DNA of 64,000 bases from Candidatus Altiarchaeia archaeon (GTDB taxonomy: Archaea; Altiarchaeota; Altiarchaeia; IMC4; QMZM01). Position numbers and translations under genes: made by a program. The stretch covers positions 71,709 to 135,708 of the forward strand of contig JBAQYF010000019.1 of the NCBI GenBank assembly GCA_049299895.1, read 5' to 3'. The first letter of the stretch is position 1. The number at the start of each line of letters is the position of its first letter. The notes below the pieces were generated by a model. That model did not search any database and was not told where the DNA came from. It saw only the letters and a list, made by a program, of their open reading frames with translations. This document shows positions 23,245 through 64,000 of the stretch, piece by piece.

Positions 23245-23342
23245 TAATTTAAACTATTGAAGAGTTCCGGGCTCCAGATTTACTCTGAAATTTCCCTTCA
23301 GGACGTTGCACTAAATTTCAGCCTGCAGGGAATAAAACAGCG

Positions 23343-23410: not shown

Positions 23411-23485
23411 CCGGTATGTTTAGCGCAATATAAGCACTGCCCAAAAGAAATGTTTATATATTTATTAAAAAACTAATTCATTATC

Positions 23486-23752: not shown

Positions 23753-24181
23753 ACCGGACGGGCTTGCATCTTCCTCCTTCTGGAACAGGGTCAGCCCTTG
23801 GTCGCAGCTTTTGACCGAGATGTTCTTTACAAGGCAGAGCAGGCGCTCTTTTACTTCCAGCAGGAATTCCTCCCCTTTGGAAGTGAGTGCGTAGGTCTTC
23901 TTCCCGGGTTTTCCTTCGGTATACGCCCATTCGCCTTTTATGTATTCCTTGTCTTCGAGCCACTGGAGGACGGGATATATCTTTCCCGGGCTTATTTTGA
24001 CGTTGTATGTCTTCTCAAAGAACTTGATTATGTCGTAGCCGTGGGTGTGGCCCTTCGAGATCAGGGAGAGGCACTGCACTATGGCAAAGGATTTCAGGAA
24101 GTGCTCGTCTATCCACGCAAGCAGGGATCCTTCGTCGATCCCGGCGCATTCACCGCCTTTTGAAGCTGCCGGTTCTTTCAT
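23747..24181 (-). CDS. PadR-family transcriptional regulator
   Basis: PadR winged helix (...YDIIKFFEKTYNVKISPGKIYPVLQWLEDKEYIKGEW...). 4-bp overlap with the upstream COG1361 gene. Confidence 0.8.
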   Translation of the reverse strand: MKEPAASKGGECAGIDEGSLLAWIDEHFLKSFAIVQCLSLISKGHTHGYDIIKFFEKTYNVKISPGKIYPVLQWLEDKEYIKGEWAYTEGKPGKKTYALTSKGEEFLLEVKERLLCLVKNISVKSCDQGLTLFQKEEDASPSGL

Positions 24182-34117: not shown

Positions 34118-34121
34118 TTTT

Positions 34122-45831: not shown

Positions 45832-46431
45832 TCAACGGGCCCATGAGTAGCATAGTTCCTTCAGATCGACGTCATCTATCCTGGGGCACAAACCAGGGTT
45901 CCTGGACTGGATCGCAACGGTCCTGAAACATTCGTCCTTTTTGCTCTGTGTAACAACCATGTCGCATATCGTGGCATTCCTGCCCTGCGACGCGACCTCT
46001 ACGTAGCAGGCGTCCGTCTGAGCGGGATCGCTTATCTTATCGCACAGGGTTATATTCGACATGGTTCTTGCTATCCAGTAATAACAGAGGTCTCTTCCGT
46101 TCAGGACTTTGGCATCCTCGCAAAACGAGGAATCCCCGCGGACCCAGGCGACGCAATAATACTGGTATCCCTCGTCAGGTATCTCGCCGCATATCCTCTG
46201 GTTCCCGGAATACTTGGCGACTTTCACATAACAGATGGATTTGGTATCGTTCACCTGTATCCGGTCGCATGGGGAGGTATCAACGTGCATGAGAGCCGCG
46301 TCCATGTAGCAGCGGTCCAGGTCCACGGTGTCGGAATTCTCCTCGCATATGGCTATCAGATCGGACTTCTTGCTCATGCAGCAGGAGAACAGGATAATGA
46401 ACACTACCAGGATATAAGCCAACTTGTTCAT
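45832..46431 (-). CDS. Cysteine-rich repeat lipoprotein/secreted protein (about eight approximately 25-aa C..D....CY repeats)
   Basis: Probable start MNKLAYILVVFIILFSCC (signal peptide plus lipobox-like). Repeated D..CY...A...D...C units follow. The upstream part of the listed ORF is non-coding. Confidence 0.45.
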   Translation of the reverse strand: MNKLAYILVVFIILFSCCMSKKSDLIAICEENSDTVDLDRCYMDAALMHVDTSPCDRIQVNDTKSICYVKVAKYSGNQRICGEIPDEGYQYYCVAWVRGDSSFCEDAKVLNGRDLCYYWIARTMSNITLCDKISDPAQTDACYVEVASQGRNATICDMVVTQSKKDECFRTVAIQSRNPGLCPRIDDVDLKELCYSWAR

Positions 46432-46703
46432 CGTATAAAGGATTAAACTACAAGGAGATAAATAAACATTTAGATCAATCATGTTATCGCCGCTATTACA
46501 GTTATGGTATTGTTGCATACCCAGCGCACTCCGGAGGGGATCTATATAGTCTAGTATTCGTTCTTGGTAGAAGGCTGACCGTTTACCGTAACAATCTCCC
46601 TCAATCCCCGGATTAAAAGCAGTTCTCAGTCTGCTAACCGGTCGACGCAAGCTTTTTGTCTACATCGCCGAATAATCCCCGGAGGAGACGGTCCCGGAGT
46701 GAT

Positions 46704-47432
46704 TTACGTCTTTATCATGAATCTCACCGCCAGAAACGGCTCCATATTCTGGTGCGGCACTCCTTCCCCGGTGTTGTTGATCTCTATGCTGTAGTCGGAC
46801 ATGTTGAGATCCGGGGGCGGAGCAGCATATAGATTTGTCCGGGTTATTTTGCCCGGGACTGCACCTGTCGGATCGGCGGTAGTTCCGGTATCAGACCCAA
46901 CCAACCAGGCATCGTGCTTGTGGACAGGCATCTGTTCCAGGGTTATGTTAATTGTCTCGTTTCCGCCCCTGGAGCCCTGGGCTCGGTTGATAAGCCCGTC
47001 TCCCTGGCCTTTTCCGATGGGCACCCTGCTACGCATGTCAGGCAACTTGAAAGTAGTGGCACCGTTTCCCCCATACAGGATGCCGATATAAAAATATAAG
47101 GCAGGATAATCCACTATGTTCAGCTCCTGGCCCTCGCACGCAAGCCACCCGGAAGGCACGGTATCCCCGGCAAACATCCTGATCTCCCCGGTATAGACCG
47201 ACGGCCAGCTTGTCCGGCAATCCCCTGCCAGGCATATCCCCGGGGAGGATAACCTGCTGCCCGCGCCTGATATATTTATGTCCCCAGCAAGGCTGACACC
47301 GCCGGACGCATTGACCCCTCCGTTTTTTATTATGACGCTACCGCTCTGGGCCATGAGCATCGCGGAAATCATAAACACTGCGACTACGGACGCAATTTCC
47401 AAACCTCCTGAAGCCTTAAAATTGAATTCCAC
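46704..47432 (-). CDS. Phage tail collar domain protein (MdpB / COG4675-like), paralog 3 of 3, N-terminal TM or signal
   Basis: GEIRMFAGDTVPSGWLACEGQELNIVDYPALYFYIGILYGGNGATTFKLPDMRSRVPIGKGQGDGL...GGNETINITLEQMPVHKHDA matches the tail-collar (PF07484) consensus almost position by position. Confidence 0.7.
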   Translation of the reverse strand: MEFNFKASGGLEIASVVAVFMISAMLMAQSGSVIIKNGGVNASGGVSLAGDINISGAGSRLSSPGICLAGDCRTSWPSVYTGEIRMFAGDTVPSGWLACEGQELNIVDYPALYFYIGILYGGNGATTFKLPDMRSRVPIGKGQGDGLINRAQGSRGGNETINITLEQMPVHKHDAWLVGSDTGTTADPTGAVPGKITRTNLYAAPPPDLNMSDYSIEINNTGEGVPHQNMEPFLAVRFMIKT

Positions 47433-47435
47433 TTT

Positions 47436-48173
47436 TTAAGTTTTTATGATATACGCGATCACCAAGTATGGTTGCATGTTCTCGTGCGAATACCCACTTC
47501 CGGCATTTAGTGTTTCAATAGAACCGTTGGCCATGGATAAGGAGCCCTCCAAGAGAGAATACCGATTGCGGCTGGGATCTATTCCAAAAACATTCCCGCT
47601 TGGAGTACTCGAATCCCCGTTCCCCGCAGCATAAGCCTTCAGCATCCCGGTGTGAGTGTGAAGCGGCATCTGGCTTAAGGTCAAGTTCTCCGACTCGTTG
47701 CCCCCCATCTCGCCAAGGCTTCTATCGGTCAGCCCGTCTCCCTGACCTCCCCCAATAGGAGATCTACCCCTCAGGTCGGGCAGCTTGAAAGTAGTATCAC
47801 CGTCTCCGCCGTATGCGATCCCGATCACGGCGTACAATGCAGGGTAGTCAGCGATGTTCAGCTCCTGGCCCTCGCACGCAAGCCACCCGGAAGGCACATT
47901 ATTCCGTGCAAACATCCTTACTTCTCCAGTTAGGCCCCCGGACCAGGTTGTCCTGCATGTCCCGGCGATGCACAGCTCGGGCGCATATACCTTTGACCCC
48001 GACCCGTAAACGTTTATGTCTCCGGCCGTCTCAATGCTGTCTGAAAGCAACACCTGCCCGTCGCGCACTGTAAAGTTCCCGCTGCAAATCAATGCAGATA
48101 CGAGACAGAACAATAAGACAAATGGAACGATATGCATTTTCTTCAACTTACGCGATTTGTTTTTCAATTTCAC
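47436..48173 (-). CDS. Phage tail collar domain protein (MdpB-like), paralog 2
   Basis: GEVRMFARNNVPSGWLACEGQELNIADYPALYAVIGIAYGGDGDTTFKLPDLRGRSPIGGGQGDGL...NESENLTLSQMPLHTHT. Confidence 0.7.
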   Translation of the reverse strand: MKLKNKSRKLKKMHIVPFVLLFCLVSALICSGNFTVRDGQVLLSDSIETAGDINVYGSGSKVYAPELCIAGTCRTTWSGGLTGEVRMFARNNVPSGWLACEGQELNIADYPALYAVIGIAYGGDGDTTFKLPDLRGRSPIGGGQGDGLTDRSLGEMGGNESENLTLSQMPLHTHTGMLKAYAAGNGDSSTPSGNVFGIDPSRNRYSLLEGSLSMANGSIETLNAGSGYSHENMQPYLVIAYIIKT

Positions 48174-48908
48174 TCAGGTTTTGATCATGTAATTCAATAC
48201 GACATAAGGTTTCATATTATTATGAGGCAGCCCCCCTCCAACAGCAGAAATGTTGGCTCCGGTTGAGGACATGTTTACAAGAACGGTCGTGTTGCTGCTG
48301 TAGCGGAGTGCTCCACCCTGGCTTCCTGGCACGTTCCCGCCAGGGTTATCTCTGTTGGAGGTGCTACTACCGATTGAATGGGCGCTGTGATTATGCACAG
48401 GCAGGTTGACTGCCGAGAGGGTCACGCTCTCGTTCCCTCCGGAAACGCCAAGATCCCACTCCGTCAGACCCTCGCCCTGTCCGGCCGCTATCGGCGCCCT
48501 GCCCCGGAAGTCCGGTATCTTGAACGACGACACGCCGTCTCCGCCATACGTTGTACCTATCACGACAAAGAGATCCGGGTAAGCGGAGGGATCAAGCGAC
48601 GTTCCGTTGCAAAAGAGCCATCCCACAGGCTCATTAGATCCCGCATATAGACGTATCTCGCCAGTGTTGGCCCCGGACGAATCCCAAGCAGTCGTGCAGC
48701 TTCCCGCCAGGCATACCTTCGACGCATATATCTTTGCGCCCGCGCCGGACAAGTTGAGCAAGGAATTTGCCTCTATGCCTCCGGACACGTTAAGGGTTCC
48801 GTTGCGCAGATTAACCTCCCAACTCTGAACGAGATATGATACCAATATCCCTGATGCCGCAGCGAGCAGCAAGTAATATTTCAGCCTGCTTTGACGGAAT
48901 TTACTCAT
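48174..48908 (-). CDS. Phage tail collar domain protein (MdpB-like), paralog 1
   Basis: GEIRLYAGSNEPVGWLFCNGTSLDPSAYPDLFVVIGTTYGGDGVSSFKIPDFRGRAPIAAGQGEGL...NESVTLSAVNLPVHNHSAH. Confidence 0.7.
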   Translation of the reverse strand: MSKFRQSRLKYYLLLAAASGILVSYLVQSWEVNLRNGTLNVSGGIEANSLLNLSGAGAKIYASKVCLAGSCTTAWDSSGANTGEIRLYAGSNEPVGWLFCNGTSLDPSAYPDLFVVIGTTYGGDGVSSFKIPDFRGRAPIAAGQGEGLTEWDLGVSGGNESVTLSAVNLPVHNHSAHSIGSSTSNRDNPGGNVPGSQGGALRYSSNTTVLVNMSSTGANISAVGGGLPHNNMKPYVVLNYMIKT

Positions 48909-48947
48909 TTTCTAAGTAGATAATAATTATATGGGAGTCAATAAATT

Positions 48948-50987
48948 TCATAATAGGGTGTTCGACGCAAGCTTGCCCCGCATGCAAAGGCTGCCCGCCG
49001 AATCGATATAAGCCATATTCGTTCCTGCGCTGTTTTGCACCACAAAAGAGCCCTCCCCGGGATACGAGCAATCCAGATCGTAGTCGCTGCAAGTCGTATC
49101 CTGTATGCAGAGGTTGCCCCATTCGTCTATATATGACACGGTCGCATCGCTGCTGTTTTGCACCAGGAACGTCCCGTCCGGCGGAGCACTGCACGACCCG
49201 CCCGCGATGCAGGATCCAGTCAAACGGATCTCTCCAGCATCGCTAAATGATGCAACCTTGTCGCCCGAACTGTTACGAACATAGAAATACGTAATCTGCG
49301 AACCATCGTCCAAAACCGCCAAAACAGTTACAGTATTATTGCACGAACCGCTAACGCCAAAGGGGATGACAATAGCCCAATACTCTTTCCTGGCTGACGC
49401 AACGCCTTCAGACGTTTCAATGCCTTCAACGCCCAGATCGAAGGCAGACTCATTTACATAACCCGTCGACAGTTTCTTTGCAGACATGCTATCATAGTTT
49501 CCCGGGAATACGCCGTAACTGATATTCCCCGCGCCGATCACACCCGCCCCGGAACATGACATGTCCGCGTTGGCGGCAACCTGTATGTCGATCATTACGT
49601 TCCCCATGTTCGTGATATTGGTGCTGTTGGCAGAACTGCTATTCTGCCCAGGACTCATAGAACCAAAACTTACGCTATCCTCCAAGACCGACAAAGCGAC
49701 CAATTGATCGACGATACTATCCCCTGCAGAAGAATTTGAATTATCAATTGAATCACTGGCAGAAACATTACAGGTCCAGGTCCCGTTCAAAGCCTCATGA
49801 TGCAAAGTGAACGCACAGGATACGTTCCGTTCATTTCCGCTCTCGCTTGTAAAAGAGCAGCTTGAATTAGTATAATGAACGTTGTAATCGTCCGGGTCTG
49901 GCGAGGAAACGGTCTGGTGATAAAGGGTCGCGTCGGCAGAAACGATATCCTGGTACCCATTGACGTCCGTGACCGAAGCGTTGCACAAGACAATGGTATC
50001 GTCTGCCACAGACAGGCCGATATTCCCGCCGTCAGAATCGGAAAGAGAGACTCCGTCAACCACGGGAGCCTCGTTAGACCCTGACAGGTTGAAAGGATAG
50101 CTTGCATTCATCGCCCCGCCGTCGTCGCTTACAAGCACGTTGCCCTCGTTGTCGCACAATTCCGCGTAGGCCCTGTACTCCCCTGCGGGATTGTCGGAAG
50201 TATTCCATGCGCCGGAATTCCACCACACCTGATCAAGCGCAAGCCCGGAGCCTGCCGTAATGATCCTCGGGGAAGAGTCGTTGACTATCGTAGCCTCGTC
50301 GATCCACGCCCCCTGTTCATTCTTCTTTTGCACGACCATGCGCAGGTATGCAAGTATGGAAGTAGACCCGGAGTTGTTCACCTCGGATTTGTCCACGCCG
50401 AAATAAGAGGACCCGGATAACATGAGGCCGCCGGTATTATTGACGTATACGTTCACAGTCCATATCTCCTTGTATTCGTCCCCGTAGGGGATAGTGTAAT
50501 TGTATTCGTAGGTCAATCCGCTGGAAATAGACCCTGCGGGAGTCATCGAGGCGTTGTTCACTGCCGCGGTCCCACCCTTCAGGAGAAGCGTGATCACTGC
50601 CGAATCGAGGCTGGATGCTCCGCCGATGTCGGTCGCGTTGACCCGTATCCTTATATCCTGCCCCTGGGTGAAAGAGGCAGATGCGCCCAGGGAGGAATCG
50701 TATGTCAGGGGCGAGGAGACAGTCATCTGTATGTCGGCTATGGTAATGACCCTTACCTCGCTTACTTCATACGTCCCGGCGGAGGAACAATTAACCCACC
50801 AATAATAGTCTCCCAGATCAAGGGACTCGTTTATGGTCAGGGACTGCTCCGTATTATTCGCTATCTCGCAGGAATCGCAGGCAAAGGCCGGACCTGAAAG
50901 CAGAAAGACGCAGAGACAAACGTAAATGGAACAAACGATTCCATGCGCTCGCATCGTGCGCCCAATCTTCTTTCTATTCGCTTTCAT
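48948..50987 (-). CDS. Large secreted/surface protein, about 680 aa, rich in N-glycosylation sequons and Cys, no recognised domain
   Basis: Likely start MKANRKK with a signal peptide (IVCSIYVCLCVFLLSGPAFA). Many N-x-S/T sequons. Cys-rich C-terminal region. Confidence 0.5.
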   Translation of the reverse strand: MKANRKKIGRTMRAHGIVCSIYVCLCVFLLSGPAFACDSCEIANNTEQSLTINESLDLGDYYWWVNCSSAGTYEVSEVRVITIADIQMTVSSPLTYDSSLGASASFTQGQDIRIRVNATDIGGASSLDSAVITLLLKGGTAAVNNASMTPAGSISSGLTYEYNYTIPYGDEYKEIWTVNVYVNNTGGLMLSGSSYFGVDKSEVNNSGSTSILAYLRMVVQKKNEQGAWIDEATIVNDSSPRIITAGSGLALDQVWWNSGAWNTSDNPAGEYRAYAELCDNEGNVLVSDDGGAMNASYPFNLSGSNEAPVVDGVSLSDSDGGNIGLSVADDTIVLCNASVTDVNGYQDIVSADATLYHQTVSSPDPDDYNVHYTNSSCSFTSESGNERNVSCAFTLHHEALNGTWTCNVSASDSIDNSNSSAGDSIVDQLVALSVLEDSVSFGSMSPGQNSSSANSTNITNMGNVMIDIQVAANADMSCSGAGVIGAGNISYGVFPGNYDSMSAKKLSTGYVNESAFDLGVEGIETSEGVASARKEYWAIVIPFGVSGSCNNTVTVLAVLDDGSQITYFYVRNSSGDKVASFSDAGEIRLTGSCIAGGSCSAPPDGTFLVQNSSDATVSYIDEWGNLCIQDTTCSDYDLDCSYPGEGSFVVQNSAGTNMAYIDSAGSLCMRGKLASNTLL

Positions 50988-51021
50988 AGACCATCTTCGC
51001 ATGATAAATGGATAAAGTAGC

Positions 51022-52923: not shown

Positions 52924-52971
52924 TATTTTTTTCGTTGGTTTACAAATCCCGGCATGCTTGGATCAATGCGA

Positions 52972-55900
52972 TCAAACGCCTGCCGGAGGATCCGTGAGAT
53001 TCACTATCTCATTTGGCCCGTATGAATCTTTTTTGGTTGCGACCGTCAGGGAAACGTTCGCTTTGACGCTGAATGAACCGTTAGTCCAATTAATATTATT
53101 TGCAGAGTCATTAACATAAATCGTGTAATTATAAGTCCCCCATTTCCAGGTTCCAGTATAGTTGTATTGCCATAGGTCCGAGACATTAGTCATCGAGTAA
53201 TTGGTCTCCAAGCCTCCAGGAGGCGTTATGCCTATCCAGACCGTGCTTATCCCGAATGACGAAGATGCAGAAGCATTTATGGAAACGTTGTAGCCGTAGC
53301 CTAACGGATCCGGCCCGTCGACGACGTCTGTTATATTCGGATTAAGCCAATCAGATGATACGCTCAGGTTATAATCGTCCGAGCGCCCGCTGTGCCCCTC
53401 AGAATCCGAGCAGTTAACAGACCAGTTATAAATTCCGTCAGGCAGGAATAAATTGAAATACTGATCCGTGTTTTTTGTTACCAACGTGTTTGTTTGGCCG
53501 ACTACATCATTTAGCAAAAGATCGCAGAAAACGATATCATAGCCCCCGCTCACGTTGTAGGTGAAATTCACAGTCCTTGATTCAGTCCATTCAGAGTTAT
53601 TGGCCGGCGCGATTAAAGACACATAAGGCGGCGAGCGAGCAATCGTAAGATACCTTGAGTTCGAAGAATCAGTATAATTCGAGTTTCCTGCAGAGTCGTT
53701 GGCCCAGCCGTAATACGAATAAGTCCCGCTTGACAGGTTCGTAACATTGACATAGAACAGATAAGTAGAGCTATTGTACTTCTGGAATTCAGACCGGTAC
53801 TGAAACCAAATTTCCCGGGAGGACAAAGTACGATTATATAACCTAACCTCGTCGATAGATCCGTTGAAATCGAAATAAAGAGGATACGCGAAGGACATAA
53901 CGCCAACGGCAAATCTATCCCCCTGGGCAGCCCGGTAAACAATCGGACCGGTTAGGACCGAACTAGTCTCGTTGACGCCGTTTAGATATAACTGCGCTCC
54001 GCTGGATGAATTATAAGTCAAAGCCACGTAATACCAAACATCGGTTGTGACCGAGGAAACAGATTGAATATTTATCTCATTCGAATTGTTAAGATCATCC
54101 AGATTAATCGACACCCATATCTTGTTATTGAGCGAATACACATTGTAGCCCGACCCCCAATTATTCCTGCCCCGGCTAAGGATAAACTGAGTACCGGAAA
54201 CCATATTAAACTTGACCCACGCCGAAACCGTGAGATAATCGCTTGGAGCCAAAACCGAAGAATTACCAAACAACACATAATCGTTATCCCCGTCAAAACT
54301 CAAAGCCGAACCAAACCTCCCGGAAGAATTCCAAACAGCATCCAGGACAGTACCGTTATTCCCATACCGGGAAACATCCACAGCAAAAGTAGAATTCTCA
54401 CCGATCGCCGAATTATTATTGAAATTCATATCCAATACGAGCGAGTTATCGTATATCGAATAATTCGAGCCATTCCAATTGAATTTGAAGAAATCAAGAT
54501 TCTGCTCGGTGATCGATATATTGACCTGCGTCGAATTAACGGTAATCGTCGACCCGTTCCCGGCAGTCGGGAAAGAGAAGTTAAGGGCAGGAGCAATCGT
54601 GTCCGCCGAAACGGTCAGATACCTTGGACTCGCCGCAGTATACGTGTTCGTATAATTCGAATTCCCTGACGTGTCGTTCGCCCAGCCGTAGTATGTGTAC
54701 GTGCCGGAGGATAGATTAGTCAGGTTCGCGTAGAACCGGTACTGTGTCGAATTGTATTTCATAAACTCCGACTGGTAGTGCATCCAGACCTCCTGCGCGG
54801 ACAGCGAGCGGTTGTACACGCGGACCTCGTCGATGGAGCCGTTCCAGTACCAGTTCGTCCATTTGTTCGCACCTATCTCCAGAGGAGCTGCAGACGAAAA
54901 ATCGCCAATGCTGCCCGAGGCGCTATTAGCCAAAACACCATTTATATAAAGACGTATAGTATTGGAGCCGTTATAGACCCCCGTCAAATGAACCCATCTA
55001 TTCGTAGCCGAAGAATCTAACTTCTCAGCATATAAATAGACGCCCCCGTGGTAAGTAAGAAAACGCCACTGCAAAGAATCCCTTTTATAATACAAACTAA
55101 AATAGCCAGTTGAAACACCCTTGCTAACAATACCCAAATGAGCACTACCCGAAACATCCACAAGATAAACCCAAGCCTCCACCGTAAAAGCAGTAGCGTT
55201 CGAAAAATTAACAGAAGGATTATGAGAAACATTAAAATAAACAGCAGACCGATTATACTTAAAAGCACCACCAAACCGCCCAGACGCATTCCACACAGGA
55301 CAAGAAGACAAAAAACAAGAAGCATTATTACCATATCCGGAAGAATCAACCACATAAGACGAATTATCACCCAAAACAGAATTATTATTGAAATTCAACG
55401 CCAAAACAAGCGAATCATCATAGAAGGTATAATTCGTACCGTTCCAGTTGAACTTGAAGGAATCAAGGTTCTGCTCTTCTATCGAAATATTCACCTGGGT
55501 CCAGTTGACGGTGATCGTTGATCCGTTCCCGGCGGTCGGGGAGGAAAAATTTAGGGCAGGCGCCATTGTGTCTGGTTCAATCAATGAAATGGTCAGATAC
55601 CTCGGGCTCGACGCATTATACCCATTCGTATAATTGGAATTCCCGGCGGAGTCGTTGGCCCAGCCGTAATACGAATAACTCCCGCTTGAAAGGTTCGACA
55701 GGTTGGCGTAGAAACGATAAGTCGTCGAATTGTACTTCGCAAACTCCGCCTGATAATGCATCCAGACCTCCTGCGCGGACAACGCACGATCATACACGCG
55801 GACCTCGTCGATCATCGACTTCGTATCGCTCTGAGCGATGTGAACATACGCTGACATAAAGCCAGGCCAGCCGTCAACATACGAACCGACCAAAACGCCA

Positions 55901-58900
55901 TCCCGATAACTGACCCTGGACCCGGAAACATTGGAGAAAACAACCGCATAATGATGGAATCCTTCCTCCAGAACGATAGAAGGAGAATCAAAATAAGAAC
56001 CCTCCACGCGCGCCACAGGCATAACCATCGACACACCGCTGTCGTTATAATACTCAAAAGTAATACGACTAGACCCATCCATGTCAAAATTCAAATAATC
56101 ACCCCAATCAACAGAAGAATCATCATCCCTCAACCAAAACTCAAAAGTAGACGAAGAAGTATTAATACCGACAACACAACTCACACCGTCATCACTGTCC
56201 AAAAACTGATAAGCACCGCCAAACCTACCAGAAGAATTCCACACAGCCCCACCAGACACATCACAAACAAAACCATTACCAGAAACATCCAAAACCAGAG
56301 TCGAATTCTCCCCGATAGCTGAATTGTTGTTGAAATTCAAAGCCAACACAAGCGAATCATCATAGAGAGAATAATTCGATCCGTTCCAGTCGAACATGAA
56401 CGAATCAAGATTAGGCTCGTCAATGGAAATATTCACCCGAGTCCAATTGACACTGATCGTCGAACCGTTCCCGGCGGTGGGATCTTCAAACGATAACACG
56501 GGAGCGGTACTGTCTGCTTCTATTGTGAATCCGTCGGCCGCGGATAGGTTGTCGTATCCTGTGTTGTGGTCGACGCAGCTTATGTTGTAATAGTAGGTGC
56601 CGCCCGACGCAAAAGACCTATTGTATTCGTAGACGCCGGAAGATGCGTTATAAGACATGTTCACGGCCTCGCTCCAGGACCCGGAGCTGTTCTCTGAATA
56701 CTCGCAGTATATACCCGTGCCATTTACAGGATCCCCCGAAGTGCCATTCGTATAGTTGGCATAGAAGAGCACCTGCTCCCCAGCATACTTGCTCTCAAGG
56801 TCGGTGTCATCCCATATAGTAAGGTTGCTGTTATAGCCCATGCCGCCGGCATAAGCCGTGAATGACGCCACAGTAAACCAGAAATGAGTCCCATTCTCCC
56901 CGTAGGAGTAATCGCCGGTTGAATTCTTCTCCCATGAACCACAGACCCCGGAGGAATAATTCCAATCCGTGCAGTGATAGATATAATCGATCCTGAAACT
57001 CTTAGGGAGGGTGATGAGCGCGTTCTGCATACTGAACTGCGTAGTATCCAACGCAACTATCGTCGAGATGTTACGGGCATCAGAAGGAAGACCCCCCTCA
57101 AGGGATGCGAACTGCGGGCCCACTGATACATTACCCAAAGTAAGATTCACACCACGCAAGACCATGCTCCCGATCCCGGACGAAATGTTAATATCATATA
57201 GGTCGTAGAGCGCAGCATACCTGCTAATCCTCGAATCAGCCAGAGAAAAGTTCTTTGACTCCAAAAGATAACCATTCCGATCAAAAACATCGGCAGAAGA
57301 ATCCAGAACACCCAGCGAAGAATTATACGCAGTCACGTTCAAGAACGCAGTCGAAGGATCCACAAATAAATCAGCGTGAGTAGAAGAACTCATGTTCTCC
57401 GAATAATTAGAGACATACACACACCAGTGTATGTCCGACTCAGAAGAAAGAACAGTCCTGGAAAGATACGAACCAATACCCCTACGCTCAATATCCCCGG
57501 GATAAGTATGAACAGAAATCTCACCCCCATCCACAGAACAAGACATACCAGTATTCTTCACCTTAACAGTCAGATTAGCCGCATCAACCCAACCAAAATC
57601 ATCCTCAACTGATATGTTCAATACAGCAGCATCCCCCGCCATATAACGCGAATTACCGCGCAGATTAATAGCATCAAGATCCGTACGCACCCGAACCAAA
57701 CGGAAGATAATAGAGGAATTCCCTTGAGCAGCAGAGTAATTAACGCCCGCATCCGAATAATTGACCGAGAGATTATAATAACCAGGCGCATAAACAGTCT
57801 TATCAAATGACAGGCCACAATGACCCGATGAATTGGTCGCGTTCATGCCCAGGTATGAGCCGTTCAGATAGAACGAACAATTCGCAAGGACACCCACAGA
57901 GGAATTATAAAACAGGTAGACTCTGCCCTGCACAGTCAAATTATTACCAACTATGCCCAACACATCCTCATGAGGAAGAGAACTGGTATAATTACCCCGG
58001 AAAACACTTCCACCATTAACCGGACTGATCAAATCCGCACACGCATACCAAGACACATTCACAGACAAAGAAACGTTGTTGTTCGATTCGCCGGACTCCG
58101 CAAAGGAGCCATCCGAGTCAACCGCCCAGAGGAACGAATGACTGCCTCCTGAAGCAGTCCAGTTAAAAACGATCACATGAGACGCATTTCTCGCAATATC
58201 CACCACGACCGATGAATTCAGGACCGAATCCACATAGAAAGACAAATTCAAACCGGACACATTCACAACGTCATTATTATGAACCGTCAGATTAAAACTC
58301 ACATTATCAAACTCCCCGGCAGAAACAGGAACATAAGAGAGGTCACTGACATTCACCGAGAAATCAAAGGCATTACCCGCAACCAGAACATCGTAGGCGG
58401 AAGTGAAATTAACGTTACCCGCAGCATCCTGCACGTAGGCAGTATAATTATAATAACCGTCAGAGAGGTTTGTGAAATTCCGATACAACCGGTTTAGACC
58501 TGCGTTGTATGAGGCATTGATCTCCTCGGGGGAGAGTGCGCGATTCCAGATGCGCACTTCGTCGATGGAACCGTTGAATTGCTCCCCGCTTCTCCCGCCG
58601 ATCCTGAAAGACGACGCCGGCCAGTCGAAGCTCTTATAAGCGCAAGAAGACACACTGGTGCCGTTAAGATATATCGAGATATTTGTAGAGTTGGACGTTA
58701 CCGTCACATAATTCCAGGAATTGCAGGGCATGGGGCTAAATGAACATATAGAAGTATAAGTACCATTGATGAATGCACCCACATAAAAAAGGCTCACGTT
58801 ATTCATTCTAATACTGGGTTTATGGTCTGCTCCTTCAAAGATGTTTCTTGTAGAATCGCCTGCAGACCGTGGATTCAGCCAGGCAGAAAAAGACCAGTCT

Positions 58901-61900
58901 GAGTCATTAAAAACACCGTCAAATGCAGGGGAATAAGGAACGGAAATAAAATCATCCAAGCCGTCAAAAACATATGCTCCTCCAAATTTACCTGAAGAAA
59001 CAAACAGGGGGCATGAATTATCAGAGCAAGTACCATTGTTCCCATAACTGCTCCAGTCCCGGACAAACGTAGAATTCTCCCCTGCCTCATTATTGAACCT
59101 CCACCACCCGACAAGCGACCGGTTAAAATCAATGAACGCCGTCCCCGCGGGGGATGAGCCGTTCACCGACACGTTCACATACAACGAGTTCACGTTCGTC
59201 GACGCATTAGATAACAGCGTCGGCGAAGCAAAGCCGATAAGAGGATATATCGTATCAACAGCCAAAGTCCTCGCGCCTGTTTCGCTGATGTTTCCTGCCG
59301 AATCGTTCGCCCAGCCGTAATATATATACGTGCCGGACGACAGATTCGTCAGATTCGCATAGAACCTGTACTCGGATGTATTGTATTTTGAGAATTCTGA
59401 TTGATAATGGAGCCATATCTCCTGCGGGGAGAGGGAACGATTATAGATGCGGACTACGTCGATGGATCCGTTAAAAGGAAATCCGTCGCCTCTCTTGCCT
59501 ACATAAAGACTCTGATAAGATTTAGTCAGGCCATGTGCGAGAGTCTTGTTGTTTTCCAGCCGGCCATCGAGATAAACATCAGCTTCAAGAGTTGAATTCA
59601 CGTAGGTGAAGGCGACATGATGCCAGGACGTATCCACACTGGTCGATCCCGTGACGGCATCATCGTTAATACCATAGTTGATATATCCTTTCAAAACATC
59701 GTTTACCACGCAGAAACCGTATGAAGCAGTATATGCTTTATCGACCATGCAGTGAACCGTTCCTGTTGAAGACCTCTTGATCCACGCCTCAATGGTCAAG
59801 GCTTCCAGGATGTCCAGGCTGGACGCGTTCCCGCAGCTGGCATAGTCCAGCAGGCCGTTGAATGTATAAGCTCCGGAATACTTGCCATTGAGGGTATATA
59901 GCGGCCGCCCATAGGTCGTCCAACCGGAATTATGCGTGTCTCCGTACGCGGCTGACTTGTCTGAGAAACCGATCAGCATTCCGTTGTTTCCTGCCCCGGA
60001 GAGGTCTGATGCAAGGCTTCCTGATGCGTTGACAAAAGGGATATAAAGGACGAGACCGGTTTCGTTGCTGTAATTGCCCAAATACTGCTGGTACGCCTCT
60101 TCTCCGGAAACCGACCGGTTATATACTCGTACCTCGTCTACAGAGCCGTTAAATAACCTGTTAGGGGAGATAGCAGAATGAGTCCCAATGCTCAGGGGGA
60201 TCTCGTTTATTGAAGCATTGATCGTCTGAAGCGCGTCATCCTTCAGCGCGCCGTCTACGTACAGCATGACATGAGTCCCATTCCACGTGCCCAGAATATG
60301 ATACCAGCGATTGGTGCTATATACGTCGCCTGTATTTGTCGAAATCTGTCCGACGCTATTGGCTATGACAAACCAGAAATTACCGACAGAATCACTAGTA
60401 GAAGTCGTCGAAATAGTGTAACTGGAGTTCTTGAAAAAATCGTCAAATGATTTGCCCACCATGCTGGCCCCGTATTTGAATGCCCTCACATAGACCCATG
60501 CAGAGACCGTCCCTGTGGAAGACAAATGAAGGGACTCGCTATCCGAGACATTGACCCAGTCATTGCTTCCGTCAAACTTGAGGGCAGACCCTCTCACAGT
60601 ACAGTTATTCCCGTATGGAGAGACATCATTTGCGCCTGTGGAATTCTCCCCGATCGCAGAATTATTGTCGAAGTTTAACGCCAGCACAAGAGAATCATCG
60701 TATATCGAATAATTCGTCCCGTTCCAGTTGAATTTGAACGTATCAAGGTTCTGCTCGTCTATCGAGATATTCACCTGCGTCCAGTCTCTGTTGATAGTCG
60801 TCCCGTTCTCCCCGGTCGGGGACGAAAAATTCAGGAACGGCGCCGTCGTATCCGCCGCTGCAAAAGAAACCGTCAAATATCTTGGACTTGTCGCAGTGTA
60901 CGTATTCGTGTAGGCGGAATTACCTATCGTGTCATTGGCCCAGCCGTAGTAACTGTATGTGCCGTCAACAAGGCCTGTAACATTCGAGTAGAACTGCCAC
61001 TGCGTAGCGTCGTACTTTTTCAGGGTGGAAAGATAATGGACTTTTATTTCCTGAACGGATAGAGAGCGGTTGTATATTCTTACGTCGTCTATGCTCCCGT
61101 TGAAATACCTGGAACCGCAGCTATATCCTATTTTCAGGGAGTTGTTTGTTTCTTTCAGGGGGCCTAGGGCGGCAGTGCAGTTCTTGGTAAGCACCCCGTT
61201 AAGATAATGATAAACCTGGGTTCCGCTCCTCTGAACGACGAAATTCTGCCAAACCTCGCTCGTGAGCTGCGTTGAACTGTTACTTGCTTCATTGCAATAA
61301 CCGGTTACGCCGATAAGTAATGAAAAAGTGAACGCATTGGTAATGGCTCCATCCTGCTGGATGGTAAATCCTTCAAGATGGCAGTTATGCCTGTCCAAGA
61401 GGCCGGCATAAGTAGCTGATTGGTTTGCCCCGGGCTTAACCCACATTGAAATGGTCATGTCATTGACCGCAGAATCCAGACTGGCCGAATCGTTCACAGA
61501 GGCATAATCATCGAAGCCATTAAACCTCATCCCAAATCCCTCTTTACCGGGGTAAGTCCATAAAGGCCTGCCGTAAGTAGTCCATCCGCTTGCAGAGGTG
61601 TCGCCTGCTCCTGCGGTTGTGTTGGCATAGTTCGTGAGGTTCCCGTGGTTGTTCATTCCGGACTTGTCTGAGGCGTTCGTGCCGGAGGCGTCTGAGAACG
61701 GGAGGTATAGAACAAGTCCCGTATCGTTGCTGTAGACGCCTTTGTATTGTTCGACGATCTCCGCTGCTGTCAGTGCGCGATTGTAGATGCGCACGTCGTC
61801 GATGGAGCCGTTGTAGTATCCAACGTTCTCCTTGCTTTTTCCGATATACAGCGTCGATGCCCCGGTGGAAAGCGCGTGAGGAGCGGATATGTCAGGCGTG

Positions 61901-64000
61901 GTGTTGCCGTTGATATAAACATTCAGGATCGAACCATTGTATGTTACCGCCACATAATTCCACTCATTTCTTATTATCGTATTGGTATTCCCGGCAGTAT
62001 CATCGGCATAAGCCCCCCAGTAGAGCCCTTCGTCAGCCTCGGAATAGTCATAAAGCAGGTTGAACATCTGGCTTGTTGCCGTCGCCCCGAACGAAAACAT
62101 ATCCTGCCTTCCCTGCTTTCCGGAAGGCTTGAACCATAAAGTCACTGTCCTCGCCTGAGAGCCGGTGATGCCGACATTGCCAACCGTATCGATATAATCG
62201 TCCAAGCCGTCAAACTTCAGCGCAGAACCCCTTATGGTCCCGTTGTTCTTGTAGCTTGAATATTCATAAGACACATTTCCCGTGCCTTCATTCATCGGAA
62301 GAGCCAAAACCAGATCAGAGTAATTGCCGCTGTATACCGGCGTTGAATTGCCGGCGCTTCCAAAGAAAGTATAATTCGTGCCGTTCCAGTTGAAAATAAA
62401 AGTGTCCAGATTACTCCCATTTATCGAGATATTCACCTGCGACGAATTCACGTTAATGATCGAGCCGTTTCCTGCAGTCGGAGCAGAGAAATTAAGCGCC
62501 ATAGCGACAGAATCGATCGTAATATATCTTGTATCGGTCATTCCCGTCCCTGCTGCCGTGTCATTGACCCAGCCGTAGTAACTGTATGTGCCGTCAACAA
62601 GGCCTGTAACATTCGAGTAGAACTGCCACTGGGTCGAATTATACCTGGCAAGGCTTGAAGAGTATTGGAATCGTATTTCTTCTGTGGTAAGAGAACGGTT
62701 ATAGACGCGGACATCGTCGATAAGACCGTTATAGCAGGCGGTTTTTGCCAAATTGCATCCGACTGCATACTGAGTGGGAGCAATGTTTGTAACCATCGTC
62801 TTGTTGCCCACAGAAATCCCGTTCTCATACAGAGTGTACATTGAACCGTCGTAGGTTGTTGAAACAAACAGCCACTGGCCTTCGACCGGGATATTGCCAA
62901 CTAAAGCATCGCCATACTGGCTCACATAAAGGTTTTTATTCCCAGACAATAAGCCTATGTGGAATGAACTAGAAAAAGAATCAACTCCATCATTATACAT
63001 TATATGATAGGAGTCTGTTGTTATGACCCCCGGCTTAGTCCAAAAACTGACTGTGCGAGACTGGTTCCCGCCCGGAAAAGCAGAATTATTTCCAGAGACA
63101 TAATCGTCATAACCGTTGAAACTAGCACCGTAAGAGTACTTCCCCCGGTTAGTCCACATGGGACGGCCGTACGTAGTCCAGCCTGAGCCGGAGTTGTCTC
63201 CTGCGCCGGCAGAGGTGTCGGCAAAGCTTGTTAAGGTGCCGTGATTGTTTTGGCCCGACTTGTCTGAGGCGTTCGTTCCAGAAAGATCGGAGAATGGGAT
63301 GTACAGCACAAGCCCGGTATTGTTGCTGAATATCCCGTTATAATGTTCAGCTATCTCAGTTGCGCCAAGAGACCGGTTATAAATGCGAAACTCGTCGATG
63401 GTGCCGTTGAATGCTCTTCCGGCGCCATACCCCCTGCCGATCATGTAGTTTAATCCGGTATTCGGCGTAACGGGGGTAGTGCATGAATCGGTTATGTTGG
63501 GCACTCCGTTCAGGTATATAGTACATGCGCTGGAATTTTTGACGACCGTCAAGTATTGCCACAAATCTGAGCTAAGATGTAGTTTGTTCGACGTTGCAGG
63601 CACCCATGCGGTTCCGTTTCCATAGGCAAAGGAATAGTTATTTAGATTGGTTGAATCCTGCTGGAATACTATCCCCAGATAACTTCCACCGTGGTTTCCA
63701 AAAATGTCCGCATATTGAACCTGCGCAGAACCAGGCTTCACCCACAGTCCTATTGAGAAATTGTCCGTTAACAGAGGAAAGTACGTACCGGTATTAACAT
63801 AATCATCGCTCCCATCAAACTTCAACGCGGAACCCCTTGTAATCCCGCTGTTTCCATAGAAAGAATAATCATAAGACGTGTTTCCCGTTCCTTCATTCAT
63901 CGGAAGAGCCAAAACCAGATCAGAGTAATTGCCGCTATAAGTCGGACTTGCATTACCGGCAGACCCGAGGAACGTATAATTCGTCCCGTCCCAGTTGAAC
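52972..64000 (-). CDS. Giant surface protein, at least 3646 aa, built from Ig-like plus LamG (concanavalin-A-like lectin, Laminin_G_3) repeat units. The 5' end lies beyond the right edge of the window.
   Basis: At least 12 copies of the LamG_3 hallmark ...NGSIDEVR(I/V)YNR(A/S)LS..EI...Y. Repeated SDLVLALPMNEGTGN and DDSLVLALNFNNNSAIGENS modules. The listed start at 63912 is a TTG read as M. Translation continues in frame (...DLVLALPMNEG) to position 64000 with no stop, so the gene is partial. Sequon density is extreme. Confidence 0.8.
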   Translation of the reverse strand, partial: FNWDGTNYTFLGSAGNASPTYSGNYSDLVLALPMNEGTGNTSYDYSFYGNSGITRGSALKFDGSDDYVNTGTYFPLLTDNFSIGLWVKPGSAQVQYADIFGNHGGSYLGIVFQQDSTNLNNYSFAYGNGTAWVPATSNKLHLSSDLWQYLTVVKNSSACTIYLNGVPNITDSCTTPVTPNTGLNYMIGRGYGAGRAFNGTIDEFRIYNRSLGATEIAEHYNGIFSNNTGLVLYIPFSDLSGTNASDKSGQNNHGTLTSFADTSAGAGDNSGSGWTTYGRPMWTNRGKYSYGASFNGYDDYVSGNNSAFPGGNQSRTVSFWTKPGVITTDSYHIMYNDGVDSFSSSFHIGLLSGNKNLYVSQYGDALVGNIPVEGQWLFVSTTYDGSMYTLYENGISVGNKTMVTNIAPTQYAVGCNLAKTACYNGLIDDVRVYNRSLTTEEIRFQYSSSLARYNSTQWQFYSNVTGLVDGTYSYYGWVNDTAAGTGMTDTRYITIDSVAMALNFSAPTAGNGSIINVNSSQVNISINGSNLDTFIFNWNGTNYTFFGSAGNSTPVYSGNYSDLVLALPMNEGTGNVSYEYSSYKNNGTIRGSALKFDGLDDYIDTVGNVGITGSQARTVTLWFKPSGKQGRQDMFSFGATATSQMFNLLYDYSEADEGLYWGAYADDTAGNTNTIIRNEWNYVAVTYNGSILNVYINGNTTPDISAPHALSTGASTLYIGKSKENVGYYNGSIDDVRIYNRALTAAEIVEQYKGVYSNDTGLVLYLPFSDASGTNASDKSGMNNHGNLTNYANTTAGAGDTSASGWTTYGRPLWTYPGKEGFGMRFNGFDDYASVNDSASLDSAVNDMTISMWVKPGANQSATYAGLLDRHNCHLEGFTIQQDGAITNAFTFSLLIGVTGYCNEASNSSTQLTSEVWQNFVVQRSGTQVYHYLNGVLTKNCTAALGPLKETNNSLKIGYSCGSRYFNGSIDDVRIYNRSLSVQEIKVHYLSTLKKYDATQWQFYSNVTGLVDGTYSYYGWANDTIGNSAYTNTYTATSPRYLTVSFAAADTTAPFLNFSSPTGENGTTINRDWTQVNISIDEQNLDTFKFNWNGTNYSIYDDSLVLALNFDNNSAIGENSTGANDVSPYGNNCTVRGSALKFDGSNDWVNVSDSESLHLSSTGTVSAWVYVRAFKYGASMVGKSFDDFFKNSSYTISTTSTSDSVGNFWFVIANSVGQISTNTGDVYSTNRWYHILGTWNGTHVMLYVDGALKDDALQTINASINEIPLSIGTHSAISPNRLFNGSVDEVRVYNRSVSGEEAYQQYLGNYSNETGLVLYIPFVNASGSLASDLSGAGNNGMLIGFSDKSAAYGDTHNSGWTTYGRPLYTLNGKYSGAYTFNGLLDYASCGNASSLDILEALTIEAWIKRSSTGTVHCMVDKAYTASYGFCVVNDVLKGYINYGINDDAVTGSTSVDTSWHHVAFTYVNSTLEADVYLDGRLENNKTLAHGLTKSYQSLYVGKRGDGFPFNGSIDVVRIYNRSLSPQEIWLHYQSEFSKYNTSEYRFYANLTNLSSGTYIYYGWANDSAGNISETGARTLAVDTIYPLIGFASPTLLSNASTNVNSLYVNVSVNGSSPAGTAFIDFNRSLVGWWRFNNEAGENSTFVRDWSSYGNNGTCSDNSCPLFVSSGKFGGAYVFDGLDDFISVPYSPAFDGVFNDSDWSFSAWLNPRSAGDSTRNIFEGADHKPSIRMNNVSLFYVGAFINGTYTSICSFSPMPCNSWNYVTVTSNSTNISIYLNGTSVSSCAYKSFDWPASSFRIGGRSGEQFNGSIDEVRIWNRALSPEEINASYNAGLNRLYRNFTNLSDGYYNYTAYVQDAAGNVNFTSAYDVLVAGNAFDFSVNVSDLSYVPVSAGEFDNVSFNLTVHNNDVVNVSGLNLSFYVDSVLNSSVVVDIARNASHVIVFNWTASGGSHSFLWAVDSDGSFAESGESNNNVSLSVNVSWYACADLISPVNGGSVFRGNYTSSLPHEDVLGIVGNNLTVQGRVYLFYNSSVGVLANCSFYLNGSYLGMNATNSSGHCGLSFDKTVYAPGYYNLSVNYSDAGVNYSAAQGNSSIIFRLVRVRTDLDAINLRGNSRYMAGDAAVLNISVEDDFGWVDAANLTVKVKNTGMSCSVDGGEISVHTYPGDIERRGIGSYLSRTVLSSESDIHWCVYVSNYSENMSSSTHADLFVDPSTAFLNVTAYNSSLGVLDSSADVFDRNGYLLESKNFSLADSRISRYAALYDLYDINISSGIGSMVLRGVNLTLGNVSVGPQFASLEGGLPSDARNISTIVALDTTQFSMQNALITLPKSFRIDYIYHCTDWNYSSGVCGSWEKNSTGDYSYGENGTHFWFTVASFTAYAGGMGYNSNLTIWDDTDLESKYAGEQVLFYANYTNGTSGDPVNGTGIYCEYSENSSGSWSEAVNMSYNASSGVYEYNRSFASGGTYYYNISCVDHNTGYDNLSAADGFTIEADSTAPVLSFEDPTAGNGSTISVNWTRVNISIDEPNLDSFMFDWNGSNYSLYDDSLVLALNFNNNSAIGENSTLVLDVSGNGFVCDVSGGAVWNSSGRFGGAYQFLDSDDGVSCVVGINTSSSTFEFWLRDDDSSVDWGDYLNFDMDGSSRITFEYYNDSGVSMVMPVARVEGSYFDSPSIVLEEGFHHYAVVFSNVSGSRVSYRDGVLVGSYVDGWPGFMSAYVHIAQSDTKSMIDEVRVYDRALSAQEVWMHYQAEFAKYNSTTYRFYANLSNLSSGSYSYYGWANDSAGNSNYTNGYNASSPRYLTISLIEPDTMAPALNFSSPTAGNGSTITVNWTQVNISIEEQNLDSFKFNWNGTNYTFYDDSLVLALNFNNNSVLGDNSSYVVDSSGYGNNASCFLSSCPVWNASGRFGGAFKYNRSAVYFNVSHNPSVNFSNATAFTVEAWVYLVDVSGSAHLGIVSKGVSTGYFSLYYKRDSLQWRFLTYHGGVYLYAEKLDSSATNRWVHLTGVYNGSNTIRLYINGVLANSASGSIGDFSSAAPLEIGANKWTNWYWNGSIDEVRVYNRSLSAQEVWMHYQSEFMKYNSTQYRFYANLTNLSSGTYTYYGWANDTSGNSNYTNTYTAASPRYLTVSADTIAPALNFSFPTAGNGSTITVNSTQVNISITEQNLDFFKFNWNGSNYSIYDNSLVLDMNFNNNSAIGENSTFAVDVSRYGNNGTVLDAVWNSSGRFGSALSFDGDNDYVLFGNSSVLAPSDYLTVSAWVKFNMVSGTQFILSRGRNNWGSGYNVYSLNNKIWVSINLDDLNNSNEINIQSVSSVTTDVWYYVALTYNSSSGAQLYLNGVNETSSVLTGPIVYRAAQGDRFAVGVMSFAYPLYFDFNGSIDEVRLYNRTLSSREIWFQYRSEFQKYNSSTYLFYVNVTNLSSGTYSYYGWANDSAGNSNYTDSSNSRYLTIARSPPYVSLIAPANNSEWTESRTVNFTYNVSGGYDIVFCDLLLNDVVGQTNTLVTKNTDQYFNLFLPDGIYNWSVNCSDSEGHSGRSDDYNLSVSSDWLNPNITDVVDGPDPLGYGYNVSINASASSSFGISTVWIGITPPGGLETNYSMTNVSDLWQYNYTGTWKWGTYNYTIYVNDSANNINWTNGSFSVKANVSLTVATKKDSYGPNEIVNLTDPPAGV
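54400..63950. repeat. Large near-identical intragenic DNA repeats inside the giant LamG gene. Unit is about 0.95 kb in the middle and about 1.6 kb toward the 5' end, with about 80-100% identity between copies.
   Basis: The motif GAATTATTATTGAAATTCA...GTTCCCGGCGGTCGGG recurs at about 54410, 55378, 56320, 60658, 62345 and 63960. A 64-bp exact match CCCAGCCGTAGTAACTGTATGTGCCGTCAACAAGGCCTGTAACATTCGAGTAGAACTGCCACTG lies at 60940-61003 and 62569-62632. Confidence 0.75.

Follow-up and report, generated by a model that had tools for sequence, protein, structure and literature searches.

We analyzed a 64,000-nucleotide (nt) stretch of DNA from a Candidatus Altiarchaeia archaeon (contig JBAQYF010000019.1; here called the window), and in it the seven genes that fill its right end, positions 45832 to 64000 (~18 kb). 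The rightmost is the visible part of a giant gene whose product carries laminin G (LamG) and immunoglobulin (Ig)-like domains. It is followed by genes for a Cys-rich protein, a protein first described as an orphan, three tail-collar proteins (in gene order col3, col2, and col1), and a putative lipoprotein (Table 1). The explanation that we slightly favor is that these genes form a variable surface-adhesion island, which encodes a multivalent, lectin-like giant adhesin and an exported heterotrimeric fiber tip. The giant would be an N-glycosylated adhesin in which Ig-like units serve as spacers between the LamG domains. The collar proteins would be paralogs of the T4 gp12 type, each with two features unique to the lineage, a signal peptide of the Sec type and a short stalk with a disulfide loop, and col1, col2, and col3 would assemble 1:1:1 into one tip. 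The six HxH histidines of this trimer may hold it together by binding one metal ion, a glycan- or surface-binding head may be formed by the variable residues that follow HxH, and the tip may cooperate with the giant in the same attachment process, as the analogy with bacterial gene cassettes suggests. Two more exported proteins, one Cys-rich with an Lcl_C-like end and the other a putative Ig-like rod, would occupy the middle. By analogy, we infer the heterotrimer, its metal and ligand, and any contact of the giant with the trio. An adhesion-type function is well grounded in homology and gene context.

All three collar proteins match the Pfam family Collar (PF07484) over 57 of 57 model positions and score 84.5 to 93.9 bits (cut-off, 24 bits). 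A preliminary description of this DNA, made from the sequence alone, had listed three MdpB-like tail-collar proteins, and the matches (E, 5e-24 to 6e-27; 242 to 245 amino acids [aa]) bear this out. Each protein consists of an N-terminal hydrophobic segment, a stalk of ~50 aa with a conserved Cys loop (C-x-A-G-x-C-x-T-x-W), and a collar/HxH module of ~165 aa. The paralogs are 42 to 50% identical to one another and 81 to 83% identical to their orthologs in a related Altiarchaeal contig, L004 (col1, 81%; col3, 83%). The ratio of nonsynonymous to synonymous substitution rates (dN/dS) relative to L004 is 0.24 to 0.36 (col1, 0.24; col3, 0.36); all three paralogs are under purifying selection. In NCBI, col2 is 100% identical to MFZ2456172.1, which is named “tail fiber protein,” and col3 is MFZ2456173.1.

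In an alignment of 56 family members, the two histidines of the HxH motif (H172 and H174 in col2 numbering) are invariant. In a C-terminal strand with the pattern H-x-N-M-x-P-[YF], H230 and N232 are present in at least 90% of the sequences and P235 in all of them. All six archaeal collar proteins retain HxH (LPVHNH in col3) and the strand residues. The family profile aligned the motif (“HtH”) with HKH of gp12 (residues 116 to 118 of 1ocy) and also with HQH of the cyanophage A-1(L) fiber. We take HKH in 1ocy to be His445 and His447 of gp12, zinc ligands on the trimer axis; Thomassen et al. reportedly described these two residues as zinc ligands in 2003. The least conserved stretch of the collar proteins lies directly after HxH, and the receptor-binding head of gp12-type tips is expected just there. 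An AlphaFold2 (AF2) model of the col2 monomer reaches a predicted local distance difference test (pLDDT) score of 89 to 95 in the collar. Foldseek matched this model best to T4 gp12 and to the A-1(L) fiber, and sequence searches of the PDB lead to the same two fibers. The archaeal proteins share with the gp12 tip (PDB 1OCY and 1H6W) and the A-1(L) fiber (8KEC) the collar, the HxH motif, and the general order of parts, in which the collar is followed by HxH, a variable head, and a C-terminal strand. They differ in having no long shaft or baseplate part, in having a signal peptide and the 50-aa Cys-loop stalk, and in being three distinct cellular paralogs rather than the product of one viral gene that forms a homotrimer.

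A search for collar homologs returned more than 4,000 COG4675 clusters at E ≤ 1e-5. Among 4,112 collar homologs, only three clusters, all of them Altiarchaeal, extend over the signal and the stalk; the others begin at the collar. A scan of GTDB species representatives with col2 found bacteria only and no archaeal relative. The collar proteins also match many phage tail-fiber and collar families in PHROGs, and one of these, phrog_9116, spans part of the stalk too. On its way to Sec export, a bacterial-type cassette seems to have gained a signal peptide and a stalk with a disulfide loop.

Virophage DSLV2 provides the sole experimental precedent for a trio of this kind: its three PF07484 proteins co-purify as a 1:1:1 heterotrimer and form fibers ~16 nm in length that bind Synechococcus cells (PMC12724248). 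Cell binding was measured by enzyme-linked immunosorbent assay (ELISA), and lipopolysaccharide (LPS) was proposed as the receptor on the basis of docking (PMC12724248). Both trios consist of three consecutive, co-oriented genes that encode collar modules of ~170 aa, and their products group by position and vary after the collar. In contrast to the archaeal genes, those of the virophage lie beside capsid genes and encode no signal peptides, and the heterotrimer and cell binding that were demonstrated there are predicted here.

Bacterial relatives connect collar trios to giant adhesins. A genome scan with col2 found bacterial loci at 27 to 64% identity (36 to 54% over the full length), most with three tandem modules of ~170 aa. 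These MdpB/COG4675 cassettes belong to the same family as the archaeal trio, come in triplets, and often adjoin a giant adhesin; unlike the archaeal proteins, theirs start at the collar, with neither signal nor stalk. We then scanned metagenome contigs with the family profile, counted the arrays, and looked for giant genes in the 41 loci that had 4 kb or more of flanking sequence. Of the 101 arrays, 51 had three modules, more than had any other number. An open frame of at least 1,000 aa lay within 1.5 kb of the array at 17 of the 41 loci, and one of at least 1,500 aa at 15; L014 is a sixteenth locus with a neighbor of at least 1,500 aa. The giants at these loci (L009, L010, L014, L015, L019, L024, L032, L042, L043, L054, L056, L079, L085, L086, L091, and L102) measure 1,500 to 3,100 aa. 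A Pfam scan that covered seven of them found He_PIG autotransporters in Dyella (L009) and Stenotrophomonas (L019), a Big_12 and LamG protein that is a substrate of a type IX secretion system (T9SS) in Hymenobacter (L010), DUF4347 with Big_12 and RTX in Massilia (L014), and DUF4347 with cadherin in Rivihabitans (L024). In a metagenome contig (L032), a 2,151-aa cadherin/Big_9 protein is followed by three collar genes on the same strand. The 1,633-aa open frame in a betaproteobacterial metagenome-assembled genome (L015) has only a weak, subthreshold match to Big_3_5 (Ig-like). Stenotrophomonas acidaminiphila and Massilia oculi are among the species that carry the pairing.

Since well under 1% of the proteins in a bacterial proteome are this large, collars and giants lie together far more often than by chance in these loci, which were best matches taken with no matched control. 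The pairing of a giant with three collars recurs in unrelated bacteria with different secretion routes, which favors a functional link. A rough neighbor-joining tree showed positional orthology in the proteobacterial triplets and clustering within lineages in Bacteroidota and in the archaeon. Either the collar genes were triplicated repeatedly, it seems, or they evolved in concert. In the literature, we found no paper that links tail-collar triplets to adhesins or gives a tested function for bacterial MdpB. A wider proposal, which we offer tentatively and regard as rather doubtful, is that three-gene PF07484/MdpB cassettes accompany giant adhesins as a conserved accessory module, both in Bacteria and in one archaeal lineage or more. 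They would serve as a heterotrimeric, phage-fiber-like lectin tip or docking factor for giants exported by type I (T1SS), type V (T5SS), or type IX secretion systems or by the archaeal Sec pathway.

The giant gene of the window is open over 3,675 codons from base 63999 to its stop codon at 52972 to 52974, and the frame is still open at position 64000. The preliminary description had given it more than 3,646 aa of Ig-like and LamG units that run past the window; this holds, and 3,646 is the count from the first TTG. Laminin_G_3 (PF13385) matches in 10 stretches (E, 1e-214; 704.5 bits), and Big_13 and CARDB match as well (Pfam). Iterated mapping with hidden Markov models (HMMs) resolved 10 LamG and ~9 Ig-like units, and single units scored between E 1e-52 and 1e-79 each. 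The ~470-aa beta-rich central region matched no family in Pfam or among the unit HMMs. The DNA repeats with periods of 1,629 and 978 nt, which match the protein units, and the repeat copies are 60 to 80% identical. Since this identity does not exceed 80%, collapse of the assembly is unlikely, and recent amplification is also not the origin of the repeats. The visible part carries 215 NxS/T sequons, or 5.9 in every 100 aa, which is 2.9 times the number expected from composition. No hydrophobic 19-mer occurs anywhere in the 3,675 visible residues, which end in ...LTDPPAGV; hence, the visible giant has no C-terminal anchor or sorting signal. The protein is presumably tethered or secreted via its N terminus, which lies outside the window. 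Our best reading of the sequence is a heavily N-glycosylated, multivalent, lectin-like adhesin with ten LamG domains spaced by Ig-like units.

Exact 41-mer scans for the flank of the giant gene found no match in the genome or metagenome contig sets. When the first 450 aa were used as a query, all matches were 786 aa or shorter, and the closest relatives were two-LamG proteins of ~700 aa, some with prepilin-type N termini. The few relatives with a named source come from Patescibacteria. The LamG units also resemble the LamG domain of TafC, an experimentally detected minor component of haloarchaeal Tat-fimbriae that was placed at the tip by AlphaFold modeling and given an adhesive role on account of its laminin-G domain (PMC11821415). 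We rejected membership in the TafC family (NF052521): the score, summed over nine stretches, is 252.7 bits against a cut-off of 410, and the match is limited to the LamG part (model positions ~167 to 360). No TafA-like donor-strand N-domain was found in the visible giant, and no taf genes lie near it.

Close parallels are found among DPANN archaea and Patescibacteria. The nanohaloarchaeal proteins SVXNc_0801 to SVXNc_0831 and arCOG07813 of Undinarchaeales likewise combine multiple concanavalin/LamG domains with Ig-like domains, and their genes cluster with adhesin-like and phage-fiber-like genes; a role in attachment has been proposed for these LamG proteins. In nanohaloarchaea, LamG proteins are encoded in one operon with trimeric-autotransporter-like and pyocin-knob proteins (PMC10266531). 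The mix of phage-fiber-like and lectin-like modules that the preliminary description had pointed out therefore has a close precedent in DPANN surface operons. The giant of the window differs from these proteins in its unit order (LamG-LamG-Ig three times and then Ig-LamG three times), which is its own, and in its host, since Altiarchaeia are generally regarded as free-living. In addition, no VirB4-like ATPase or C-terminal membrane anchor of the SPEARE type is seen in the visible part. The hamus protein of Ca. Altiarchaeum hamiconexum (A0A098E857), which has S_layer_N, NosD, and FKBP_C domains (PMC4975002), is an exported, glycosylated surface-appendage protein of the same archaeal lineage. 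Pfam found none of these three domains in the island proteins, and we therefore rejected the island as a hami locus. The NosD domain of the hamus protein does occur in a distant relative (P0247) of the orphan module described below.

The island has counterparts in four related Altiarchaeal contigs, which differ in content. In the window, the order is giant, Cys-rich protein, orphan with a C-terminal extension, col3, col2, col1, lipoprotein, and an archaeosine tRNA-guanine transglycosylase (ArcTGT). In L004 and L026, the giant, to which the orphan module with its extension is fused, is followed by col3, col2, col1, and CobA; in L004, the three collar genes stand directly after the giant in the same order as in the window. 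L027 has the giant C terminus (51% identical), the Cys-rich protein (62%), an orphan without extension (71%), and CobA but no collars. L005 has an orphan with extension (57%), a Hint-domain protein, toxin-antitoxin genes, and ArcTGT. The flanks thus differ, with ArcTGT in the window and L005 and CobA/LemA/GIDE in L004, L026, and L027. As judged from these sequences, the locus is old and its content mosaic, as is typical of surface-protein islands. The L004 giant (L004:3-8036) carries RCC1-like repeats (CALLTNGSLMCWGxNxxGQLG) besides LamG, and the orphan module is fused to its end in frame, which points to domain shuffling between island genes. The L005 protein (L005:3439-4383; GCA_016933855.1; 314 aa) has a signal peptide, GxVGIGT-type fiber motifs, and a C-terminal Hint/Vint autoprocessing domain. 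The start of its stalk resembles the collar stalks, with a marginal HMM match (E, 0.02), and ~6 kb of toxin-antitoxin genes follow it.

Several observations weigh against an adhesion island with a coupled fiber tip. The N terminus of the giant lies beyond base 64000, and the AF2 model of the col2 monomer is confident in the collar only. Because the bacterial collar proteins lack signal peptides, as they lack stalks, an extracellular role of the family is not established. The loci in the co-location count had been picked for their match scores and were not compared with matched random genes, and giant genes are frequent further out in the same flanks too. In the window, two genes stand between the giant and the collar trio, and the AT-rich stretch upstream of col3 could be a separate promoter. 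The giant, Cys-rich protein, and orphan occur without collars in L027, where the trio is thus dispensable for the rest, and in L005 the Hint-domain protein takes the place of the collars beside the orphan.

Much of this fits an alternative in which the island is a hypervariable surface locus shaped by virus pressure, its genes merely co-located and each acting alone. The mosaic content of the relatives, the fusion of the orphan module to the giant in L004, the Hint-domain and toxin-antitoxin genes of L005, the differing flanks, and the possible internal promoters are all as expected for independent genes. However, L004 keeps both the giant-then-three-collars order and the orthologous positions of the collars, and if the two were not functionally linked, it would be difficult to account for the recurrence of the pairing in unrelated bacteria with different secretion systems. 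We consider independence unlikely, although plausible. In another alternative, the tips are exported for defense or competition, either as decoys or blockers of virus receptors or as lectins that bind the glycans of neighbors or of the cell itself, its own giant included, and build or remodel an envelope matrix. Heads of the gp12 type bind surface glycans such as LPS, which is established for T4 and proposed for DSLV2 from docking and the cell-binding ELISA. The giant offers 215 potential N-glycan sites, and the variability of the island fits virus-driven diversification. Against this, no defense-system signature was seen (PADLOC was not run), and the sequences do not separate binding to self glycans from binding to foreign surfaces; we give such a role a small probability.

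The matches to phage tail-fiber and collar PHROGs and the NCBI name of col2 raise the question of whether the collar genes are a remnant of a provirus or a tailocin-like element, with the rest of the island unrelated. We find this very unlikely. In the island, Pfam and PHROGs matched no other viral family, be it a capsid, terminase, integrase, sheath, or baseplate protein, and the collar proteins have signal peptides, are under purifying selection, and keep their synteny with surface-protein genes. Moreover, their nearest relatives are the bacterial cassettes, and the best match in IMG/VR is a 40-residue segment. That the giant open reading frame (ORF) might be a decaying pseudogene or an artefact of collapsed repeats has nothing in its favor except the repetitive nature of the gene, and we regard it as improbable in the extreme. 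The ORF is intact over 3,675 stop-free codons; these, the repeat copies at 60 to 80% identity, the strong unit scores, the 51%-identical C-terminal ortholog in L027, and the related giant in L004 all argue against this explanation. The adhesion island with a giant lectin-like adhesin and a collar tip thus remains the reading that we prefer.

Every ORF of at least 200 aa from 45832 to the right edge is on the minus strand, as first described, and the coordinates first given for the long ORFs hold. The spacer between the giant and the Cys-rich gene is 48 nt, that between the Cys-rich gene and the orphan is ~30 nt (given an orphan start at MKANRKK, position 50987), and that between the orphan and col3 is 39 nt; col3 and col2 are separated by 0 nt, and col2 and col1 are separated by 3 nt. 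About 270 nt separate col1 from the likely lipoprotein start (46431). TATA-like, AT-rich stretches lie upstream of col3 and of the lipoprotein gene. The first genes of the island may form one operon. Each complete island protein has exactly one hydrophobic segment, which is N-terminal, and none has a C-terminal one. The claim that all island proteins are exported is consistent with this pattern in every complete protein; for the giant, the relevant end is outside the window.

Table 1. Positions in the window of the island genes and of the segments of the giant protein
Feature	Coordinates	Strand	Content or basis
Giant surface protein (visible C-terminal 3675 aa)	52972..64000	-	Open frame, Pfam
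Giant, aa 1-1615	59155..63999	-	Edge-cut partial Ig-like unit, then three LamG-LamG-Ig supra-units, period ~543 aa
Giant, aa 1640-2447	56659..59082	-	LamG, Ig-like, CARDB (aa 1886-1977), ~470-aa beta-rich region
Giant, aa 2448-3675	52975..56658	-	Three Ig-LamG units, period ~326 aa, then Ig-like C-terminal domains
Cys-rich exported protein, 633 aa	51022..52923	-	Translation, Pfam, hydrophobicity
“Orphan,” putative exported Ig-like protein, 679 aa	48948..50987	-	9 homologs, AF2, Foldseek
col3 (collar position 1), 244 aa	48174..48908	-	Pfam Collar, E 5e-24
col2 (collar position 2), 245 aa	47436..48173	-	Pfam Collar, E 5.6e-27
col1 (collar position 3), 242 aa	46704..47432	-	Pfam Collar, E 5.3e-25
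Cys-repeat putative lipoprotein, 199 aa	45832..46431	-	Translation

The Cys-rich protein contains 68 Cys residues (10.7%), a single N-terminal hydrophobic segment, and internal repeats of its Cys pattern. It had been described as having MopE-like metal-binding motifs and a DUF1566-like C terminus, and each of these claims stands in part. One literal motif, CGDGLDNDCDG, is present; the MopE-type family PF11617 gave no match even at E ≤ 10. The C-terminal domain (aa 530 to 628) resembles Lcl_C/DUF1566 (PF07603), with family membership remaining subthreshold (22.6 bits against a cut-off of 34.9; E, 1.3e-4). Among 1.84 billion representatives, we found 173 relatives, some with PF11617 or Lcl_C. 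Two of these, P0251 and P0253, pass PF11617 (47 and 41 bits; cut-off, 27), and two others, P0250 and P0252, have Lcl_C that is also subthreshold (28.1 bits). The ortholog in L027, at 62% identity, lies at the same position.

The “orphan” (MFZ2456174.1 in NCBI), previously given as a 680-aa secreted orphan, has 679 aa with its start at MKANRKK, and it is no orphan, since nine homologs were found. Eight belong to the same lineage (two are labeled Altiarchaeia/Altiarchaeota by NCBI), and the ninth is from Woesearchaeota at 29% identity. Its dN/dS is 0.24, and its sequons are 2.5-fold more frequent than expected from composition. The homolog alignment defined a conserved two-domain module (aa ~295 to 553). 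Most homologs stop after this module, and four go on with a 120-aa extension, which in the orphan itself is C-terminal and consists of three repeats of ~28 aa. In relatives, the module is joined to LamG (P0246) or NosD (P0247) or forms the end of the giant RCC1/LamG protein of L004. The AF2 model is all beta (overall pLDDT, 53) and reaches pLDDT values of 70 to 88 only at aa ~300 to 490; Foldseek matched it to strings of Ig/FN3 domains, such as those of the adhesin SiiE. The model suggests that this exported protein is a rod of several Ig-like domains. On the Woesearchaeota contigs (L006 to L008; ~10001 to 11785), the homolog lies between giant genes of 2,505, ~990, and 2,185 to 2,778 aa without Pfam annotation, so the link of the module with giant surface genes extends to another DPANN lineage. 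By eye, the extension repeats resemble the collar stalks. We regard homology between the two as unsupported, since the repeat HMM matches no stalk and the stalk HMM misses the extension. As an anecdotal observation, all three contigs that have stalk-bearing genes downstream also have the extension, and the one contig that lacks such genes lacks it.

The start of the putative lipoprotein gene was corrected to MNKLAY. The protein contains seven repeats of ~26 aa, each with one C-x(10-11)-C-[YF] pair, and it had no match in Pfam, NCBIfam, or PHROGs. By eye, MNKLAYILVVFIILFS-C (ILFSC) fits a PROSITE-style lipobox; to our knowledge, the archaeal lipidation machinery has not been defined. The sole relative, at 22% identity, is encoded 7 kb away in L004. 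The gene has its own AT-rich upstream region and no linkage to the island in relatives; hence, it is probably a separate transcription unit outside the conserved cluster.

On its left, the island adjoins the ArcTGT gene, which encodes TGT, C2, and PUA domains. The G+C content (GC) of the window is ~50%, near the top of the values reported for draft Altiarchaeales genomes, the highest of which is 48.5%, and well above the lowest (PMC4975002). Elsewhere in the window, positions 20968 to 24181 (GC, 0.395) contain small toxin-antitoxin-like genes (HicB/HicA-like, and AbrB-like with RelE/ParE-like), a CPBP/CAAX-type intramembrane protease (22552 to 23244), and a PadR-like regulator, all assigned by eye from translations. 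A repeat of ~85 nt occurs there in three spaced copies (21579 to 21662, 22424 to 22506, and 23345 to 23429). Within positions 2100 to 4203, an AT-rich intergenic region (GC, 0.39) with a 25-nt tandem repeat at 2524 to 2581 has an Orc1/Cdc6 gene (3124 to 4203) directly downstream; the region is a candidate replication origin. Three further exported proteins of the CARDB/NPCBM_assoc/DUF11 type are encoded at 19221 to 20837, 24178 to 28062, and 32921 to 35294, two of them paired with permeases (MMPL, 25742 to 26884; FtsX, 32921 to 34156). Surface-protein genes are thus generally abundant across the window.

The preliminary description had proposed that the island encodes an attachment apparatus, possibly for host contact in a symbiont. 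Attachment is consistent with export, the richness in sequons, the adhesion folds, and the recurring pairing of giant and collars. The related contigs keep only subsets of the genes, and a single physical apparatus of seven genes is not supported. A symbiont lifestyle is not supported either: Altiarchaeia are described as free-living and as hosts of Huberarchaeota rather than as episymbionts, so a host-contact reading has no basis here.

Each component of the island belongs to a known kind, and the exported archaeal collar trio appears to be new. The cross-domain association of collar trios with giant adhesins also appears to be new, as we found no description of it in the literature. Giant LamG proteins are often invoked as attachment factors of DPANN archaea and the candidate phyla radiation, and a conserved gene neighborhood has rarely been assigned to them; in our data, the same pairing of a giant with three collars occurs in an archaeon, in Proteobacteria, in Bacteroidota, and in other bacteria with different secretion routes. 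If the cassettes are accessory modules of giant adhesins, the Altiarchaeia version, having acquired a signal peptide and a stalk, would mark the family as extracellular more clearly than any other. A large uncharacterized family, COG4675, would thereby receive a role, and cells would be seen to have domesticated a receptor-binding fold of phages. Should the trio prove to be a heterotrimeric tip that binds glycans, this widespread family would have a role open to testing, and Altiarchaeia without a hamus gene would gain a candidate attachment system.

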